Part shown: positions 2,853 to 47,407 of the stretch, piece by piece
Numbering within the stretch: the first letter of the stretch is position 1
Layout: the number at the start of each line of letters is the position of its first letter
Assembly (NCBI RefSeq): GCF_024502345.1
Contig: NZ_JALDNN010000001.1
Source: Escherichia coli
Lineage (GTDB): Bacteria; Pseudomonadota; Gammaproteobacteria; Enterobacterales; Enterobacteriaceae
DNA: 64,000 nucleotides
Direction: 5' to 3' (one strand)
Notes under the pieces: model-generated
Database searches by the model: none
What the model saw: the letters and a program-made list of their open reading frames with translations, nothing else
What the model was told of the DNA's origin: nothing
Position numbers and translations under genes: made by a program

Positions 2853-4037
2853 TTAATTTGCGGCTTCCTGACGATGAAAACCTCGCCACCAGACCAGTAA
2901 GTTAACCAGGGCAATCGTCGCGCCAGCCAGACAAACGCCAGCCCAACCGCCATGTTGCCAGGCTGAGGCTGAAATTAGCGAACCGGCGGCACCGCCAATA
3001 AAGTAGCTGGTCATGTAACCTGCGGTCAGGCGATTACGCGCATCAGGATGTATTCGATAAATTACCGTCTGGTTAGTGATATGCACGCCCTGTACGGTGA
3101 GGTCCAGCACCAGAATGCCGATAATCAACGCCAGTACGGAAGTGTGACCAAACCAGATTGCCAGCCATGAAAGTAACAGCAGAAGCAGACCGAATGTTGT
3201 GGTGTGGTGCGATTTGCCCTTGTCGGCAAAACCGCCCGCCGGACGAGCGCCCAACGCTCCGGCAGCTCCCGCAAGTCCAAACAGACCAATTACGCCATCG
3301 CTGTAGTTAAAAGGTGGAGCGGCAAGCAAAAAGGCCATCGAGGTCCAGAGAATGCTGAAGTTGGCAAAAGTCAGGCAGCCCAGCAATGCGCGGGTGCGCA
3401 GGATCTTATCGTTGATAAACATGCTGAAAACGGAACCCAACAACTGTGGGTAGTTGAGGTGGGTTTCTGATTTCATTTGTGGCAGACCACGCCATAATGC
3501 TAGCGCCATCAGAGCCATTAACACCGAGGCAACCCAAAAGACGGTGCGCCAGCCGCCGAGGTTTGCCAGTAACCCGGCAACGGTTCGTGCCAGCAATATC
3601 CCCAACAGCAGACCGCTCATAATGGTGCCAACCACTTTGCCGCATTTATCCGGTGAAGCCAGCGTCGCTGCCAGCGGAACCAGAATTTGTGCCACGACTG
3701 AGAATAAACCGGTTAATGCCGTACCGAGGATCATCATCGCCAGTGACTGACTGCTGGCAGTGATTAACATACCGCCCGCTGCCAGTAAGGTCATCGAGAC
3801 AATCAGGCGGCGGCGTTCAAACATATCACCGAGGGGAACAAGAAACAGTAGACCTGCGGCATAGCCCAACTGCGCGGCGGTAACAATAAAGCCCGCCGAA
3901 CTGGCGGAGAGGGAAAAGTTACGCGCAATAGTGTCGAGCAGCGGTTGGGCGTAATAGTTGCTGGCGACCGCCAGACCGGTGGCGATCGACATCAGCACGA
4001 TCAGCGCCGGGCTAAGCTCATGAGTGGGTTTAGTCAT
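2853..4037 (-). CDS. ygaY: MFS transporter, apparently intact
   Basis: 394 aa ORF with multiple hydrophobic segments; position between proX and ygaZ matches ygaY. Confidence 0.8.
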   Translation of the reverse strand: MTKPTHELSPALIVLMSIATGLAVASNYYAQPLLDTIARNFSLSASSAGFIVTAAQLGYAAGLLFLVPLGDMFERRRLIVSMTLLAAGGMLITASSQSLAMMILGTALTGLFSVVAQILVPLAATLASPDKCGKVVGTIMSGLLLGILLARTVAGLLANLGGWRTVFWVASVLMALMALALWRGLPQMKSETHLNYPQLLGSVFSMFINDKILRTRALLGCLTFANFSILWTSMAFLLAAPPFNYSDGVIGLFGLAGAAGALGARPAGGFADKGKSHHTTTFGLLLLLLSWLAIWFGHTSVLALIIGILVLDLTVQGVHITNQTVIYRIHPDARNRLTAGYMTSYFIGGAAGSLISASAWQHGGWAGVCLAGATIALVNLLVWWRGFHRQEAAN

Positions 4038-4227
4038 TATTTTTGTTTATCAGGTGATGATTAAGCTGGAAATCAATAATAGCGGATGTTTATGAATGGG
4101 GGCGAAAGATAGCTTGTTGAAATGTGCGGTGTGGTTTGTAGGCATGATAAGACGCGCCAGCGTCGCATCAGGCATTGTGTACAGAGCGGCGGATGCGGCG
4201 AAAACGCCTTATCCGCCCGAATAAAAA

Positions 4228-5220
4228 TTACTTATGCGCTGCCAGCGCCTCATTCACCCAGCCATCGAACTGCTGCTGGTGGGCTTTGATCCAGCCATCA
4301 ACGTGGCCCTGAATATCGCCTTCTGAGGCTTTGCCGTCATGCATAATGGCGTTCTGGGCGTTAATATCTGCCACTGGCAACTGCATAATGGCAAACAGTT
4401 TCGCTGCTGCCGGGTTTTTCTCGGCCCAGGCTTTATTGGCAACGATATGCATGGTGCTGACCGGGAAGCCGTAATTCGCGCCATTCGGCAGTTTGGTATC
4501 GGCATTTTTATCGCCCGGCAGTGCAGAGAACGGCACCTGCAACCAGACCACATCTTTCCCTGGCTTCAGCTCATTACTCACCCAGTACGGCGTCCAGGTG
4601 TAGTAAAACACCGGTTTGCCCTCTTTGTAGCGACTGATGGTGTCAGCCATCATCGCTGCGTAGTTCCCCTGATTATGCGTCACGGTGTTGGTCAGTTCAT
4701 ACGCAGCAAGCTGGTGGTTGATCGCACCTTCGCAGCCCCAGCCTGGGTTACAACCGGTTAAATCCGCTTTGCCATCACCGTTGGTATCGAACAGTTTGGC
4801 GATCTTCGGATCTTTCAGTTGTGCGATGTTGGTGATTTTGTACTGGTCGGCGGTTTTCTTATCGATCAGGTAACCCTGTGCCGCGCCGTTAACAAATACT
4901 CCTTCACGATAAAATTTCTTATCGCCACCGGCAGCTTCGTACATGTTGTCATGCAGTGGCGTCCAGTTCACGGCGGTGAAGGTTGCATCGCCGGAAGCAA
5001 GCGAGGTGTAGCCAACGTTGTAATCTACTTCGCTGGGTTTGTTGACGGTATAGCCTAATTTCTCCAGCGCACGGCTGACCAGCAGCGTCTGGAAGGTTTC
5101 TTCGGTGATGGTGCTTTGAACTGGATTAACAGTAATGCCTTTGCCCGGCAGATCGGCAGCAAAAGTTTGTGTAGAGATAAGCGTGGCAAACGCTGTCGCA
5201 AAAAGTACGCTATGTCGCAT
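4228..5220 (-). CDS. proX: Glycine betaine/proline ABC transporter periplasmic binding protein
   Basis: Track ORF 4228-5268; internal Met (residue 17, [21 protein letters not shown] signal peptide) gives the 330 aa ProX length. Confidence 0.93.
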
Positions 5221-5276
5221 TGTTATTCCTTTTTTTGGCAGGGTGATATGCCCGGCGTCACCGGGCAAGTGCAGAG

Positions 5277-17367: not shown

Positions 17368-18030
17368 TTAATTGCCAGCCATCGCCTGCTGGATAATGGG
17401 AATTGGCGTCAGTAAATGCTGGCGCATTAACTCACTGGCGCGCGCGGTATCTCGCGCCAGTACCGCCGCAGTCAGGGTCTGGTGCTGATCGTGTTTATCC
17501 TCCAGCATTTCCACCGAAAGCACCGTTCGCCGCAGCCAGATAAATCGATAGCGCGCCGCCAGATCAAACAACCGTTCACGCATTTGCAGCAAATAGTGAG
17601 AACCACAGCCCGCCACAATTGCTGTATGAAACGCCTGATGACGCAGATCCCACTCATCAAGCATTTTCTCGCTGGCGTCACAGGCTTCCAGCTTACTGAG
17701 CAGATGCGCTTTTGCGAGAACGTCTGCCTCCCATTCATCGCCACCGCGGGCAATCGCCAGACTGACCAGCATCGCTTCCATATTGGCGCGGGCGTCGAAA
17801 ATATCGAGCAGCTCCTGCTCTGACATAGACGCCACCCGATACCCTTTTTGATTCACCACCGTGACCAGCCGTTCCGCCACCAGTTGAGAAAGTGCTTCCC
17901 GCAACGGCCCAACGCCAAGTGCATAACGCGATGTCAGCAAACTCATCCGTAATTTTTCATCCGGTTGAAAATTACCGCGAATAATATCGTTCTTCAGCCA
18001 GCGATAGCCATCCAGAGACGTAATGGTCAT
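17368..18030 (-). CDS. csiR: GntR-family regulator CsiR (GabC)
   Basis: Track ORF 226 aa; start at MTITSLDGYRWL gives 220 aa. Confidence 0.9.
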   Translation of the reverse strand: MTITSLDGYRWLKNDIIRGNFQPDEKLRMSLLTSRYALGVGPLREALSQLVAERLVTVVNQKGYRVASMSEQELLDIFDARANMEAMLVSLAIARGGDEWEADVLAKAHLLSKLEACDASEKMLDEWDLRHQAFHTAIVAGCGSHYLLQMRERLFDLAARYRFIWLRRTVLSVEMLEDKHDQHQTLTAAVLARDTARASELMRQHLLTPIPIIQQAMAGN

Positions 18031-18050
18031 GGTGTGACTCCTGATCATTA

Positions 18051-19451
18051 TCAGCGCGTATTATGAACGGGTGTTTTTTGCCACAATACCAGCTTTTTCC
18101 AGCGAGCCATAATTGGCACGGTACAGATAATCCCTATCGCTAATAAGCCGGTGGAGATCACTTCTAACTGTTGCGCCGGACGGAATAGCATCACTACCAA
18201 CACAAAGGTAATAAAGCCGATGACCAGCCAGGTGAGCCAAGGATAAAGCCACATTCGCAAGCGAATTTCGCTTCCTTCTGCTCGCAGAATTTTGCGCATC
18301 CGCAACTGTGAAACGGCGATGACTAAATAAACCAGCAGGGCGATAGCGCCGGAGCTGTCGATCAGAAATTTAAATACCTTCGCAGGCGCGTAATAGTTCA
18401 CCACCACCGTTAAGAATGCCGCGCCGGTGGAGAGTAACACCGCCACGTACGGGGTTTTACTGCGGTTGATTTTACCCATTACCGCAGGCGCATCTCCGCG
18501 ACGGCTTAAGGAGTAGAGCATCCTGGAAGCGGTATACAGAGCCGAGTTCAGGCAACTGGTTACGGAAAGTAATATCACGCAGTCCATGATCAATTTCGCA
18601 TGGGGAATATTGAGCAATTCCAGTACCGAGCGATAAGAACCGACGGCTTTTAGTCCGGGCATATTCCACGGAATTAATGCCACGACGACAAAAATAGAAC
18701 ATAAATAGAAGATAGAAATACGCCAGATAACCGAGTTGGTGGCGCGGACAATATGTTTTTCCGGCGTGTCGGATTCCGCGGCGGCAATGGTGACAATTTC
18801 TGCGCCCATAAACGAGAACATGGTGATCAACATCGCGCTTAATACCGCACCGAAGCCGTTGGGCATAAAGCCGCCGCTATCCCACAATCTTGAGATCCCG
18901 CTCACGTCGGCATACGGGTAAAAACCGCTAATTGCGACTGCACCAAGGAAAATAAAGGCCAGGATAGCGATGACTTTGCACAGCGCCAGCCAGAACTCAA
19001 ATTCGCCGTAGTTTTTAACGCTTAATAAATTACTGCCAGTTAAGGCAAGGGTAATGACGAGGGAAAATAACCAGATGGGAATGCCTGGAACCCACGAGTG
19101 CAGGATCATGGCGGCGATGTTGGCTTCCAGCGGGATAACCAGTACCCAAAACCACCAGTACAACCAGCCGATGGTATAACCCGCCCAACGACCAATAGCT
19201 TTATCGGCATAGGTGGAAAACGAACCGGTATCGGGCGTGGCAACCGCCATTTCCGCCAACATCCGCATAATCATAACCACCAGTAGCCCGGCGAACAGAT
19301 AGGCCAGTAATACCGCCGGGCCCGCTTCGGCGATGGCGACGCTGGAACCGACAAACAGACTTGCGCCGATAACACCGGCAATAGACAACATGGTGACGTG
19401 GCGTGATTTCAGCCCGCCGCCTAACTCATGTGGTTGCGATGATTGCCCCAT
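18051..19451 (-). CDS. gabP: GABA permease (APC family)
   Basis: Track ORF 487 aa; internal start MGQSSQPHELGGGLKSRHVTMLSIAG gives 466 aa. Confidence 0.93.
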   Translation of the reverse strand: MGQSSQPHELGGGLKSRHVTMLSIAGVIGASLFVGSSVAIAEAGPAVLLAYLFAGLLVVMIMRMLAEMAVATPDTGSFSTYADKAIGRWAGYTIGWLYWWFWVLVIPLEANIAAMILHSWVPGIPIWLFSLVITLALTGSNLLSVKNYGEFEFWLALCKVIAILAFIFLGAVAISGFYPYADVSGISRLWDSGGFMPNGFGAVLSAMLITMFSFMGAEIVTIAAAESDTPEKHIVRATNSVIWRISIFYLCSIFVVVALIPWNMPGLKAVGSYRSVLELLNIPHAKLIMDCVILLSVTSCLNSALYTASRMLYSLSRRGDAPAVMGKINRSKTPYVAVLLSTGAAFLTVVVNYYAPAKVFKFLIDSSGAIALLVYLVIAVSQLRMRKILRAEGSEIRLRMWLYPWLTWLVIGFITFVLVVMLFRPAQQLEVISTGLLAIGIICTVPIMARWKKLVLWQKTPVHNTR

Positions 19452-19540
19452 CCTGAATCCTCTCGAAAGTGTGTCACTTGGGAGAGCGCCCCGACATTTC
19501 CCGCGTCGGGTCACGCGTTTAATTGTTATTGATTCTTTTT

Positions 19541-19950
19541 GCCGGAGAGCGGCTCCGCCTTATCCGGCCGACATAGATTTATTCCTGTTCACGTACAGAT
19601 TGTCGGATGCGGCGTAAACGCCTTATCCGACCTGGATCCCCGTAGGCCGGACAAGACGCGCAGCGTCGCCTCCGGCATGGGTGCGCCGATTGTCGGATGC
19701 GGCGCAAACGCCTTATCCGACCTACATTTCCGTAGGCCGGACAAGACGCGTAAGCGTCGCCTCCGGCATGGTGCGCCGAATGTCGGATGCGGCGTTAACG
19801 CCTTATCCAACCTACACTCTCGTAGGCCGGACAAGACGCGCAGCGTCGCCTCCGGCATGGTGCGCCGATTGTCGGATGCGGCGTTAACGCCTTATCCGAC
19901 CTACACTCTCGTAGGCCGGACAAGACGCGCAGCGTCGCCTCCGGCATGGG
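19541..19950. repeat. REP/BIME array, ~4.5 tandem units of ~90 bp
   Basis: Units TGTCGGATGCGGCG.AAACGCCTTATCCGACCT...CGTAGGCCGGACAAGACGCG.AGCGTCGCCTCCGGCATGG recur at 19601, 19691, 19781, 19870; palindromic REP consensus; gabP-gabT intergenic. Confidence 0.85.
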
Positions 19951-19957
19951 GGCGGTG

Positions 19958-21238
19958 CTACTGCTTCGCCTCAGCAAAACACTGGCCGATGATCTCCAGA
20001 CCCTGACGGATCTGAGCGTCTTCAATGGTGAGCGGTACAAGGATGCGCAGCACGTTGTAATACGGGCCGCAGGAGAGAAGAATCAGGCCCTTATCGCGGG
20101 CGCGCGCCACGATCTCGGCGGTGAGTTTTGCGTCCGGTTTGCTGTGATCGCCATCTTCAAACAGCTCGATGGCGATCATCGCCCCCAGACCGCGTACGTC
20201 GCCGATCTCCGTGTGTTTTTCGGCGATCGCCAGCAATCCGTCTTTCAGCTTCTGCCCCAGATCGTTGGCTTTCTGCAGCAGATTTTCCTGCTCGAACACC
20301 TTCAACACTTCCAGCGCCGCCACGCAGGCAATCGGATTACCGGCATAGGTGCCGCCCAGCCCGCCTGGAGCGACGGCATCCATCACTTCCGCGCGCCCGG
20401 TGACGCCCGCCAGCGGGAAACCGCCTGCGATCGATTTCGCAAACGTGGTGAGATCCGGCGCCACGCCCATTTGCTCCATCGCAAACAGCGTGCCGGTACG
20501 CCCTGCGCCGCTCTGCACTTCATCGGCAATCAGCATGATCCCGTGCTCGTCACACAGCGTGCGTAAACGCTGCATAAAAGCAGGCGTCGCGGCGTAGAAA
20601 CCGCCTTCGCCCTGAACCGGCTCAATCACGATGGCGGCGATATCTTCCGGCGCAGCGTCATTTTTAAAAATTCGGTGAATGCTAGCGATAGCGTCATCTT
20701 CACTGATGCCGTGCAGCGGGCAAGGATAAAGCGCGCGATAAACGTGCCCAGGCATCAGCCCCATGCCCGCAGAGTACGGATTCACCTTGCCGGTCAGCGC
20801 CAGCGTGTAATGCGTGCGCCCGTGGTACGCGCCGCTAAAGGCGATAGTTCCGCTACGTTTGGTGGCGGCGCGGGCGATTTTCACCGCGTTTTCCACCGCT
20901 TCGGAACCGGTCGTAACCAGCAGCGTTTTCTTGGCGAAATCGCCTGGCACCTTCTGATTCATAATCTCGCACAGCTCCAGATACGGCTCGTAGGCCAGCA
21001 CCTGGAAGCAGGTGTGCGACAGTTTTTTCAACTGCGCTTCCACTGCCGCAACCACTTTCGGATGCAGGTGCCCGGTATTGAGCACCGCAATGCCGCCCGC
21101 GAAATCAAGATACTCACGGCCTTCAACGTCCCACACCCGGCAGTTTTCCGCGCGATCAGCGAAAATGGGGTGAATTTGCCCAACGCCACGAGGAATTGCC
21201 TGACTGCGGCGCTGCATTAACTCTTTATTGCTGCTCAT
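19958..21238 (-). CDS. gabT: 4-aminobutyrate aminotransferase
   Basis: 426 aa ORF MSSNKELMQRRSQAIPRGVGQIHPIFADRAEN... Confidence 0.96.
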   Translation of the reverse strand: MSSNKELMQRRSQAIPRGVGQIHPIFADRAENCRVWDVEGREYLDFAGGIAVLNTGHLHPKVVAAVEAQLKKLSHTCFQVLAYEPYLELCEIMNQKVPGDFAKKTLLVTTGSEAVENAVKIARAATKRSGTIAFSGAYHGRTHYTLALTGKVNPYSAGMGLMPGHVYRALYPCPLHGISEDDAIASIHRIFKNDAAPEDIAAIVIEPVQGEGGFYAATPAFMQRLRTLCDEHGIMLIADEVQSGAGRTGTLFAMEQMGVAPDLTTFAKSIAGGFPLAGVTGRAEVMDAVAPGGLGGTYAGNPIACVAALEVLKVFEQENLLQKANDLGQKLKDGLLAIAEKHTEIGDVRGLGAMIAIELFEDGDHSKPDAKLTAEIVARARDKGLILLSCGPYYNVLRILVPLTIEDAQIRQGLEIIGQCFAEAKQ

Positions 21239-21251
21239 TCGCGTTCTCCAG

Positions 21252-22700
21252 TTAAAGACCGATGCACATATATTTGATTTCTAAGTAATCTTCGATGCCA
21301 TACTTCGAACCTTCACGACCCAGACCCGAGGCTTTAATGCCGCCGAACGGGGCCACTTCATTGGAAATAATCCCGGTATTGATGCCGACGATGCCGTACT
21401 CCAGCGCCTCGCCCACGCGGAAGACGCGACTTAAATCACGGGCATAGAAATAGGCGGCAAGGCCAAACTCGGTGTCATTGGCTTGCGCGATCACATCGGC
21501 TTCATCTTTAAAACGGAACAGCGGGGCGAGGGGGCCGAAGGTCTCTTCTTTCGACACTTTGGCGTTGGCCGGCACGTCCACCAGAATGGTGGGCTGGAAG
21601 AAGTTACCGCCGCGTTCGTGTGCTTTACCACCGCAAACCACGCGTGCGCCTTTCTCCAGCGCATCGGCAATATGCTCTTCTACTTTTGCTACTGCTTTTT
21701 CATCAATCAGCGGCCCGATAGTGACGCCTTTCTCCAGCCCGTCACCGATGTGCAGTTTGCTCACCGCCTGCTGCAATTTTTCGGCAAAGCGGTCATACAC
21801 GCCGTCCTGCACGTATAAACGGTTGGCGCAGACGCAGGTTTGCCCGGCGTTGCGGAATTTCGAGGCCAGTGCGCCTTCCACGGCTTTATCGAGATCGGCA
21901 TCGTCAAAGACGATAAACGGCGCGTTGCCGCCCAGCTCCAGCGACACTTTTTTGATGTCTTTCGCGCACTGTTCCATTAACTGGCGGCCAATTCCGGTCG
22001 AACCGGTAAACGACAGCTTGCGCACCAGCGGATTGCTGGTCAGTTCGTTACCCACCGCGCCCGCCGAACCGGTGACCACGTTAAATACACCAGCCGGAAT
22101 GCCCGCGCGGATCGCCAGTTCTGCCAGCGCCAGCGCAGAGAACGGCGTCTGACTGGCGGGCTTCAGCACCATCGTGCAGCCTGCCGCCAGCGCCGGACCG
22201 GCTTTGCGGGTAATCATCGCCGCCGGGAAGTTCCACGGCGTGATAGCCGCGGTGACGCCAATCGGCTGCTTGATAACAATCAGGCGTTTATCGGCCTGAT
22301 GACCGGGAATGGTGTCGCCATAAATACGTTTGCCTTCTTCGGCAAACCACTCAATAAAGGAGGCGGCGTAGCTGATTTCGCCTTTCGCTTCTGCCAGTGG
22401 TTTGCCCTGTTCGAGGGTCATCAGGCGCGCTAAATCGTCCTGATGCTCCATCATCAAATTGAACCAGTTGCGCAGAATGTTGGCGCGTTCTTTGGCGGTG
22501 AGCGCACGCCAGGCGGGCAGGGCGCGGTTGGCGGCGTCGATAGCAGCGCGGGTTTCATCAGCGCCCATTTTGGGTACGCTACCCAGCTTGTCGCCGTTCG
22601 CCGGATTGGTGACGTCGATGACCTCGCCATTGTTGGCGTCCAGCCATTCCCCGTTAATCAACGCCTGCTGGCGGAATAAGTTACTGTCGTTAAGTTTCAT
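21252..22700 (-). CDS. gabD: Succinate-semialdehyde dehydrogenase (NADP+)
   Basis: 482 aa aldehyde dehydrogenase family ORF. Confidence 0.96.
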   Translation of the reverse strand: MKLNDSNLFRQQALINGEWLDANNGEVIDVTNPANGDKLGSVPKMGADETRAAIDAANRALPAWRALTAKERANILRNWFNLMMEHQDDLARLMTLEQGKPLAEAKGEISYAASFIEWFAEEGKRIYGDTIPGHQADKRLIVIKQPIGVTAAITPWNFPAAMITRKAGPALAAGCTMVLKPASQTPFSALALAELAIRAGIPAGVFNVVTGSAGAVGNELTSNPLVRKLSFTGSTGIGRQLMEQCAKDIKKVSLELGGNAPFIVFDDADLDKAVEGALASKFRNAGQTCVCANRLYVQDGVYDRFAEKLQQAVSKLHIGDGLEKGVTIGPLIDEKAVAKVEEHIADALEKGARVVCGGKAHERGGNFFQPTILVDVPANAKVSKEETFGPLAPLFRFKDEADVIAQANDTEFGLAAYFYARDLSRVFRVGEALEYGIVGINTGIISNEVAPFGGIKASGLGREGSKYGIEDYLEIKYMCIGL

Positions 22701-22722: not shown

Positions 22723-23991
22723 TTATTGATTAAATGCGGCGTGTAAGGCATCCACACTACGTGCCGCTCGCAGCGTGCGTCCGGGGTTACTCTGGCTTGC
22801 CAACAGCGTTTGTACCTTGCTGACAATATGCGCACCAATAGGAATTGCTGATGTCGCTGCCGGGGAGGGCGCATTGCAGGTGTGGATCGTGCGCGGGGTG
22901 GTGACAAACAGAAAATCGTCAATCAGCTTGCCGTCCGGCGATACCGCCTGCGCCCGCACACCGGCGGGCCAGGGCTGGAGATCGCTTAACGAAAGCCGGG
23001 GACAATACTTTTGCACCAGCCGCAGATAGCCGCTTTTGCACAGCGAGTTTTTCATCTCGCCCAGTCCTGAGCGTAGATGGTTTTGCAGCACCCGGCGAAT
23101 CCCCGACGAGCCCAAAATCTCCAGCGTGTCGCTAAATGAGAAGTCGCGCTTGCGATAGCCTTCGCGTTTGAACGCCAGCACTGCGTTTGGCCCAACGGTG
23201 ACGCTACCGTCGATCATGCGGGTGAGATGAACGCCTAAAAACGGCATTGCCGGGTCGGGGATGGGGTAAATCAGGTGGTTAACAATCTGGTTATGCTCCG
23301 GCGCCAGGCGGAAATACTCGCCACGGAACGGGCAGATAATAAAGCCCGGTTCGAGGCCGAGCATTTTCACCAGCCGGTCAGCCATCAGCCCGGAACAGCT
23401 AATCAGCGTTGACGCTTCGTATTCGCCACCCTGATGGGTACGTATCACCACGCCGTTTTTATGCTCACTAAGGCCGCTGACTTCGGCGTTATAGATAATC
23501 TCGCCGCCTCTGGCCTGGAAGATTTTTGCCATCGCCGCCGTGACTTCGCGGTAGCTGACAATGCCGCTGGACGGCACAAAAATACCGCCAAGCCCGGTGA
23601 TATTCGGTTCGCGCTCGCGCAGTTCATCGGCGTTTAACCACTCGCGCTCGATACCGTTCGCGGCCGTGCGTTCCCATAAGGCGCGCATCCGTTCCATTTC
23701 GAGTTCAGACGTGGCGACCAGCATCTTGCCGCAGTTGTCGTAGCGAATGCCGTTTTGATCGCAAAAGGCTTTGGTGGCGCGGTTTCCCGCCAGGCAAAAC
23801 TGCGCCTTCAGACTGCCGGGCGTGTAATAAACCCCGGCATGGATCACGCCGCTGTTGTGGCCCGTCTGGTGACAGGCCGGGCCGGACTCTTTTTCCAGCA
23901 ACGCAATGCGGGCATCCGGGTAGACATCAATCAGTTGCATGGCGGTCGACATGCCGATGATGCCACCGCCAATAATCACAAAATCATACAT
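22723..23991 (-). CDS. lhgO: L-2-hydroxyglutarate dehydrogenase/oxidase (YgaF)
   Basis: 422 aa FAD-binding ORF; N-terminal MYDFVIIGGGIIGMSTA Rossmann motif. Confidence 0.93.
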   Translation of the reverse strand: MYDFVIIGGGIIGMSTAMQLIDVYPDARIALLEKESGPACHQTGHNSGVIHAGVYYTPGSLKAQFCLAGNRATKAFCDQNGIRYDNCGKMLVATSELEMERMRALWERTAANGIEREWLNADELREREPNITGLGGIFVPSSGIVSYREVTAAMAKIFQARGGEIIYNAEVSGLSEHKNGVVIRTHQGGEYEASTLISCSGLMADRLVKMLGLEPGFIICPFRGEYFRLAPEHNQIVNHLIYPIPDPAMPFLGVHLTRMIDGSVTVGPNAVLAFKREGYRKRDFSFSDTLEILGSSGIRRVLQNHLRSGLGEMKNSLCKSGYLRLVQKYCPRLSLSDLQPWPAGVRAQAVSPDGKLIDDFLFVTTPRTIHTCNAPSPAATSAIPIGAHIVSKVQTLLASQSNPGRTLRAARSVDALHAAFNQ

Positions 23992-24009: not shown

Positions 24010-25101
<1,092 letters not shown>

Positions 25102-47044: not shown

Positions 47045-47407
47045 TGGTGGAGCTGGCGGGAGTTGAACCCGCGTCCGAAATTCCTACATCCTCGGTACTA
47101 CATGCTTAGTCAGTCTTTACATTCGCTTGCCAGCTGCGGACGGACACGCCACTAACAAACTAGCCTGATTAAGTTTTAACGCTTCAACCCCAGGCAGGGC
47201 TTCCACGCGATCTCTTTTGGGTTTGACCTCTCTTGATCCCCGTCCTAAGAGCGGAGGCTAGGGAGAGAGGGCTCTAAGCAGGTTATTAAGCTGCTAAAGC
47301 GTAGTTTTCGTCGTTTGCGACTATTTTTTGCGGCTTTTTACGAGGCCAACCGCCCCTCGGCATGCACCTTGGGTTTCGCAAATCCCGTCGAATCCAGAAT
47401 CAGCCCC
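47045..47407 (-). ncRNA. ssrA: tmRNA (SsrA), 363 nt
   Basis: Reverse complement begins GGGGCTGATTCTGGATTCGACGGG and ends GGTTCAACTCCCGCCAGCTCCACCA; terminator-like hairpin follows at ~46975-47015. Confidence 0.97.

Follow-up and report, generated by a model that had tools for sequence, protein, structure and literature searches.

The window analyzed here is a 64-kb stretch of Escherichia coli DNA; the 506 bp that separate gabT from gabP in it are taken up by a tandem repeat array. The upstream cistron, gabT (4-aminobutyrate transaminase; 19958-21238, minus strand), and the downstream cistron, gabP (GABA permease; 18051-19451, minus strand), were assigned by equivalog-level NCBIfam matches (NF005985, 910 bits, and NF007566, 1062 bits, respectively) as well as by RefSeq annotation. 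The annotated ATG of gabP lies at 19451; the mechanical ORF runs to 19514, and the NF007566 match covers its residues 22-487. NCBIfam equivalogs were also found for CsiR (17368-18048), GabD (21252-22700), LhgO (22723-23991), and GlaH/CsiD (24010-25092), all on the minus strand, so that every flanking ORF (csiR, gabP, gabT, gabD, lhgO, and glaH) is read in the same direction. The genes csiD-lhgO-gabDTP form a five-gene operon that is induced in stationary phase, and gabDTP is also induced by nitrogen starvation (PMC6265302). The array sits within this csiD(glaH)-lhgO-gabD-gabT-gabP operon, in the gap between the fourth and fifth cistrons. A 701-nt stretch around it is 100% identical to the chromosomes of FDAARGOS_943 and FDAARGOS_944, and the identical RefSeq record carries no annotation in the gabT-gabP spacer. 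The array is of a known kind, and public genomes with annotation already include this very allele.

Between the array and gabP lies the gabP leader (19452-19539), which contains a small hairpin, CCCGAC GCGGGAAAT GTCGGG, that is kept in all alleles, including the REP-free one described below. The promoter/terminator scan also placed a terminator-like site in this leader (19502-19517), outside the array and on the plus strand, i.e. antisense to the operon. An intrinsic terminator or an internal promoter as the identity of the array was unsupported, this antisense site being the sole terminator-like one and no sigma-70-like site being detected.

The whole REP/BIME cluster spans 19540-19946 and comprises nine palindromic units (PUs), as delimited by a consensus scan, by the sequence itself, and by repeat families. 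TRF delimited a tandem core of four ~90-bp BIME-2 units at 19598-19949 (period 90, 3.9 copies, 92% matches, score 588), the sole tandem repeat in the window with a score of at least 60. The repeat search returned four 89-nt copies at spacings of 90, 90, and 89 nt, with palindromic arms within the units; unit lengths are 89, 89, 91, and ~90 nt. A tandem array of ~90-bp repeats in the gabP-gabT intergenic region, built of paired REP palindromes, had been proposed in the original prediction, and each part of this description was borne out: the array by the sequence, TRF, and the consensus scan; the locus by the NCBIfam matches and the RefSeq annotation; and the pairing by the inverted Y and Z2 types obtained from the consensus scan, Rfam, and alignment. 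Its count of about 4.5 units holds as the number of palindromes divided by two (nine halves), but not as a number of repeats, for there are four full units (3.9 by TRF) plus a degenerate solo palindrome, Y'.

On the operon's sense (minus) strand each unit reads Z2 - S linker - Y - l linker, and the PUs follow one another as Z2-Y-Z2-Y-Z2-Y-Z2-Y. The tetranucleotide GTAG is found on the minus strand for Y and on the plus strand for Z2; neighboring palindromes are therefore mutually inverted. The S linker (head-to-head, between CTAC and GTAG) measures 6 nt and the l linker (tail-to-tail) 12-13 nt. From gabT to gabP, the sense strand consists of the gabT TAG (19958-19960), 11 nt of lead, the four Z2/Y repeats, 28 nt of unique spacer, Y', 88 nt of leader, and the gabP ATG.

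The first hairpin on the mRNA is Z2-1 (19911-19946, plus strand; GTAG on the plus strand; hairpin −20.3 kcal/mol), which starts 11-12 nt past the gabT stop codon. It is followed by Y-1 (19870-19904, minus strand; GTAG on the minus strand; −18.8 kcal/mol), Z2-2 (19822-19857, plus strand), and Y-2 (19781-19815, minus strand), in which one stem change gives a G-U pair on the sense RNA (−16.7 kcal/mol sense, −13.2 kcal/mol antisense). Next come Z2-3 (19732-19768, plus strand), a loop variant of 37 nt, Y-3 (19691-19725, minus strand), and Z2-4 (19642-19677, plus strand); these three PUs and Z2-2 were each recognized by consensus scan, core pattern, and fold. The last PU of the tandem core, Y-4 (19601-19635, minus strand), carries the 5' tetranucleotide CCAG instead of GTAG, like the single unit of K-12. 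Unit dissection then gives the 28-nt non-repeat spacer (19573-19600) and Y' (19540-19572, minus strand; scan score 19 of 35; −16.3 kcal/mol). Y' has GTCG for GTAG and an altered loop, stands 88 nt upstream of the gabP ATG out of register with the units, and was found in K-12 and in every REP-bearing allele examined.

For the PU scan, the window was searched by masked local alignment with the Y and Z2 cores of the Rfam naRNA4 consensus; this consensus and K-12 REP325 also served as references for typing the PUs. The scan returned eleven units, nine in the array and two at 4138-4218. The two PU core patterns matched the window five times each, against 0.00 matches expected from 100 dinucleotide-preserving shuffles. 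The two at 4138-4218 form another BIME of one unit, in which Z2 is paired with an inverted Y (naRNA4 match of 73.5 bits at 4141-4218, minus strand). Its neighbors are proX (4228-5268, NCBIfam equivalog) on one side and, on the other, a 394-aa ORF (2853-4037), for which no NCBIfam match was obtained at 1e-20.

Individual palindromes of the array fold at −16 to −21.5 kcal/mol, and the 431-nt sense RNA as a whole at −235 kcal/mol (z = −10 relative to shuffles). The minimum-energy fold of the sense RNA also pairs Z2 with Y across the S linker, a REPIN-like alternative to the local hairpins. In an alignment of the gab units with the window's other BIME and the REP325 units, 97.2% of stem cells pair in the two-hairpin structure, against 29-48% when the partners are slid. 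At two stem positions both partners vary, one in Y (U-A/C-G/G-C) and one in Z2 (G-C/U-A). With six distinct sequences in the alignment such two-sided changes are weak evidence of covariation, yet they confirm the palindromes. An internal G.G mismatch is present in every copy of Z2, and the sense strand of the array is slightly G-rich (134 G, 120 C).

The feature is almost certainly a BIME-2, i.e. a member of the tandem-array class of enterobacterial REP elements, judging from its sequence features. A REP or PU is an imperfect palindrome of 30-40 nt that can form a stem-loop, and the nine units measure 33-37 nt and fold accordingly. The conserved GTAG 5' to the palindrome foot (PMC3333891) is present in seven of the nine units, the exceptions being Y-4 (CCAG) and Y' (GTCG). 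The array is extragenic, lying entirely between the gabT stop and gabP start codons, and it has dispersed relatives, the 701-nt query matching at 4 places per E. coli genome in the median and at 12 at most. BIME-2 elements are defined as z2 and y in inverse orientation, repeated in multiple tandem copies with short linkers; their copy number varies between strains, and copies at the same locus are well conserved (PMC3333891). Here, Y and Z2 alternate in inverted orientation (by alignment to the naRNA4 consensus and REP325), four tandem units are joined by linkers of 6 nt and 12-13 nt, and 1-4 units are found across genomes, with those of the present array 83.5-97.8% identical to each other. 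The array thus conforms to every point of the BIME-2 definition that sequence can address, and a failure of its palindromes to fit the genome-wide Y and Z2 families is excluded by the Rfam result and the REP325 comparison. BIME-1 was ruled out by the tandem copies, by the short linkers (6 and 12-13 nt), and by the spacer, in which no IHF consensus (WATCAANNNNTTR) was found; the window's only two matches to it lie at 48.5-48.6 kb.

Rfam returned three matches to RF02564 (naRNA4) above the gathering score of 59.5 bits, all covering model positions 1-77 on the minus strand, which is the sense strand of the operon: 19825-19901 (71.8 bits; Y - l - Z2), 19735-19812 (71.6 bits), and 19645-19722 (67.4 bits). 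On the plus strand of the array the model reached 51-56 bits only. In the Rfam consensus of naRNA4, a linker joins a Y hairpin to a Z2 hairpin, and RF02564 in effect detects any Y-l-Z2 BIME-2 unit; a match tells the sequence class and not the function. For other Rfam families, only sub-threshold matches at chance level were seen in the array (eukaryotic miRNA and HCV models). Elsewhere in the window, Rfam located the tmRNA gene ssrA (47045-47407, minus strand; 295.8 bits), for which ARAGORN gave the tag peptide ANDENYALAA. Prophages and islands commonly integrate at this gene in E. coli.

To place the array among its alleles, 5,426 complete E. coli genomes were searched, of which 5,425 match the flanks. 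Unit counts were inferred from the match span in the 60 best-ranked places (ranked by coverage × identity) and are approximate. Among these 60, four units were counted in seven genomes (span 701-704), three units in 22 (span 610-613), and two units in five (span 520-526), and none had more than four; two or more units thus occur in about 34 of the 5,426 genomes. About three quarters of genomes, as judged from an evenly spaced sample of the ranking, show the K-12 state of one unit plus Y' in a 237-bp spacer. The comparison of unit count with other strains, which the original prediction had named as its check, accordingly spans 0 to 4 units and places the present strain at the rare upper end. 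The element is common and known to be polymorphic, and the window carries one of its rare long variants.

The zero class consists of 1,210 of the 5,426 genomes (~22%), in which the gabT-gabP spacer is a different one, 310 bp long and without REP. It contains a ~106-bp G+C-rich palindrome (GGGGAGAGGGTTAGGGTGAGGGG ... CCCTCACCCCGGCCCTCTCCC), e.g. in E. coli 2015C-3101 at 463-568 of the extracted sequence. In 5,230 genomes a ~40-nt half of this palindrome is present, at 1-6 places in each, and the palindrome therefore belongs to another dispersed family of small repeats. It had no match in Rfam; it may resemble boxC.

In a further allele, seen in Ecol_316 (353-615 of the extracted sequence) and at least 19 other genomes, the spacer measures 263 bp and holds Z2-Y-Z2 followed by a palindrome that is a hybrid of Y and Y'. 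The 5' half of the Ecol_316-type hybrid corresponds to Y-4 and its 3' half to Y', and the 28-nt spacer is deleted; the allele appears to be a recombinant between two REPs in which that spacer was lost. The spacer between gabT and gabP therefore has at least four structural states in E. coli, namely REP-free, one unit, hybrid 1.5-unit, and 2-4 units. Arrays of the same length, including those with four units, differ between strains in the order of their unit variants; the arrays have therefore undergone repeated reshuffling. Constant features were found at the gabT end: in seven of the seven REP-bearing alleles examined, the 10-nt lead before ATGCCGGAGG has the same length and the first REP hairpin stands 11-12 nt past the gabT stop.

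As to the origin of the present allele, a single K-12-type unit would have grown to four as whole units were duplicated and reshuffled. Near-identical units would have recombined unequally or slipped against one another, possibly with strand exchange by TnpAREP/RAYT. Pairwise unit identities range from 83.5 to 97.8%; the two gabT-proximal units form the closest pair (97.8%), and this highest mutual identity suggests that they represent the most recent duplication.

We consider it highly probable, taking the explanation as a whole, that the feature is a BIME-2 expanded to four units that serves as a local stabilizer of gabT mRNA and as an attenuator of read-through into gabP. Its functional part by itself, i.e. 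the local stabilization of gabT mRNA and the attenuation of gabP transcription, has in our judgment about an even chance of being correct. Element class, position within the operon, orientation, hairpin potential, and copy-number dynamics are direct observations. The array would be co-transcribed with the operon, and it has the same orientation as REP325 has relative to yjdM/yjdN. Each palindrome would then form a stable G+C-rich hairpin on the mRNA, and the likeliest effect would be local and post-initiation. By blocking 3'-to-5' exonucleases, the hairpins may protect the upstream gabT message; by attenuating read-through into gabP, partly via Rho, they may raise the gabT:gabP ratio. A larger number of units would probably strengthen the effect, four acting more strongly than one.

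This functional reading is drawn from REP325, because the gab array shares its architecture and orientation. The transcripts of REP325 form a ladder of species with hairpin ends, and inhibition of Rho by bicyclomycin raised read-through from 23% to 39%, with the full array only (bioRxiv 10.64898/2026.03.23.713779). According to the same study, REP effects depend on context, and terminal REPs do not uniformly lengthen half-lives. Two properties of the gab array itself count against an attenuator role. Its slightly G-rich sense strand does not favor Rho loading, and a U-tract terminator is absent from that strand, on which no intrinsic-terminator-like site (hairpin plus U-run) was found.

The four-unit state is clearly dispensable, since ~22% of genomes are without REP and ~75% have a single unit, and it may be neutral. 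Neutral or selfish repeat DNA is accordingly a serious, if not the favored, possibility: the units would be REP/REPIN-like non-autonomous remnants amplified by TnpAREP/RAYT or by unequal recombination, and the four-unit state would be functionless. Such an origin is compatible with BIME-2 identity and competes with the functional part only. It agrees with a copy number of 0 to 4 with rare expanded alleles (two or more units in ~34 of 5,426 genomes), with the different small repeat that replaces the BIME in ~22% of genomes, and with the reshuffled unit order between strains; moreover, TnpAREP cleaves and recombines BIMEs in vitro and can assemble multiple REPs (PMC3333891). Less easily reconciled with it are the two-sided changes by which stem pairing is maintained, the REP 11-12 nt past the stop codon in every REP-bearing allele examined, and the measurable local effects that the comparable array REP325 has on its neighbors.

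That constant distance to the gabT stop codon bears on a translational role as well, which we regard as possible but doubtful. Here, the first Z2 hairpin would down-regulate translation of gabT: the terminating ribosome would collide with it and stall, with subsequent cleavage of the mRNA and rescue by tmRNA. Liang et al. (2015; summarized in PMC12306157) reported stalling of terminating ribosomes at REPs less than 16 nt past a stop codon. In the window, Z2-1 begins 11 nt past the gabT TAG, with the first paired base 12 nt past it, which falls inside the reported stalling range, and the lead length is constant in all seven of the REP-bearing alleles examined. Since this mechanism needs the first palindrome alone, it leaves the four-unit expansion unexplained; nor does it exclude a stabilizer and attenuator, with which it could coexist.

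A role at the DNA level seems unlikely. The array would serve as a gyrase site or as a topological insulator that relieves transcription-induced supercoiling within the operon, and it does satisfy the sequence definition of BIME-2. Such arrays are reported to be bound and cut by DNA gyrase and bound by Pol I, and insulation is among the roles given for REP/BIME elements (PMC3333891). Against this, the impact of REPs in vivo was found to be predominantly a tuning of local transcription, although control of supercoiling was not excluded (bioRxiv 10.64898/2026.03.23.713779).

We give still less credit to the notion that BIME-2 unit number is a heritable, recurrently changing control on the ratio of the GABA/5-aminovalerate permease to the catabolic enzymes of the sigma-S-induced csiD-gabDTP operon, which strikes us as very improbable. 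If it were true, the rare 2-4-unit and the ~22% REP-free alleles would be selected regulatory variants instead of neutral length polymorphism.

Similarly improbable, if anything slightly more so, is that the array is the source of a small RNA like naRNA4, which would bind HU and, by bridging cruciform DNA, help to condense the nucleoid. Condensation of DNA by naRNA4 together with HU was reported by Qian et al. (2015), as was transcription of many REPs (PMC4550694), and three units of the gab array exceed the RF02564 gathering score on the sense strand of the operon. However, a more recent study (bioRxiv 10.64898/2026.03.23.713779), which shares the author S. Adhya with the former, found no stable complex of HU, naRNA4, and cruciform DNA, no nucleoid change upon deletion or overexpression of REP325, and no REP-REP contacts in Hi-C data. 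RF02564 also matches at 4141-4218 with 73.5 bits, and the match accordingly denotes a sequence class only.

Finally, neither a CRISPR array nor a protein-coding gene with internal repeats has more than a negligible probability. The likeness is superficial (palindromic repeats at even spacing, open frames reaching 155 aa, and a 90-nt period divisible by three) and is contradicted by units that repeat as a whole, alternating orientation, broken frames, and the lack of a type I-E repeat, Pfam domain, or RefSeq CDS. As for CRISPR, the whole 90-bp unit including its linkers repeats at 92% identity, which leaves no unique spacers, and the E. coli type I-E repeat was not found in the window. Six mechanical ORFs of at least 40 aa overlap the array; against Pfam they gave sub-threshold matches only (13.6 and 16.3 bits, with cut-offs of 25 and 27), none appears as a CDS in the identical RefSeq record, and unit lengths of 88-91 nt in this and other strains disrupt reading frames between units and between strains. 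The original prediction had treated these ORFs as spurious and the repeats as an ordinary enterobacterial feature not to be mistaken for CRISPR; both judgments stand.

Recognition of the array prevents false calls, of genes from the six mechanical ORFs and of a CRISPR array, and its identity explains the three naRNA4 matches as matches to a sequence class. The natural allelic series of 0 to 4 units offers a second, physiologically understood operon for testing the recently proposed model of REP arrays as terminator plus stabilizer. Beyond correct annotation, the array has little importance.

Among known systems, CRISPR arrays resemble the gab array in their short, partly palindromic, regularly spaced repeats in non-coding DNA, but they consist of direct repeats with unique spacers, whereas in the gab array successive repeats are inverted and the segments between them recur as well. 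BIME-1 (Y plus Z1; also called RIB/RIP) likewise consists of paired inverted REP palindromes in extragenic DNA. However, it is found in single copy, and its L linker, long and conserved, frequently carries an IHF site (PMC3333891), while the gab array is tandem and of Z2 type.

A closer counterpart is REP325, the source of naRNA1-6 (Rfam RF02564 naRNA4). naRNA4 was defined on this BIME-2 array, which lies between yjdM and yjdN of K-12 and contains six Y-l-Z2 repeats (PMC4550694). Both arrays show sense-strand Z2 - S - Y - l repeats in the same orientation to co-directional flanking genes, and the Y-l-Z2 junctions of the gab array match the REP325-based Rfam model over all 77 positions with 67-72 bits. 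They differ in size (units of 100 bp and 12 hairpins in REP325; units of ~90 bp, 8 core hairpins, and one solo unit in the gab array) and in the S spacing between stems (23 nt in REP325 vs. 12 nt). The palindromes differ as well: Y is GGTCGG...CCGACA in the gab array but GGCCGG...CCGGCA in REP325, and Z2 is GCCGGAGG...TTGTCCGGC in the gab array but GCCTGATG...TTATCAGGC in REP325, with the G.G mismatch in all Z2 of the gab array. The PUs of the gab array are locus-specific variants.

The nearest relative is the gabT-gabP REP of K-12, with the same locus and flanks, which consists of one unit plus Y' in a 237-bp spacer. K-12 shares the gabP-proximal unit (Z2, GGGGATCC linker, and CCAG-Y), the 28-nt spacer, and Y', with point substitutions in the spacer and in Y'. 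Relative to K-12, the window has three extra units on the gabT side, in a spacer of 506 bp instead of 237 bp; the added Y units carry GTAG, and the S linkers of the added units read GAGAGT and GGAAAT. What is unusual about the present allele is that it carries four units where most strains carry one.
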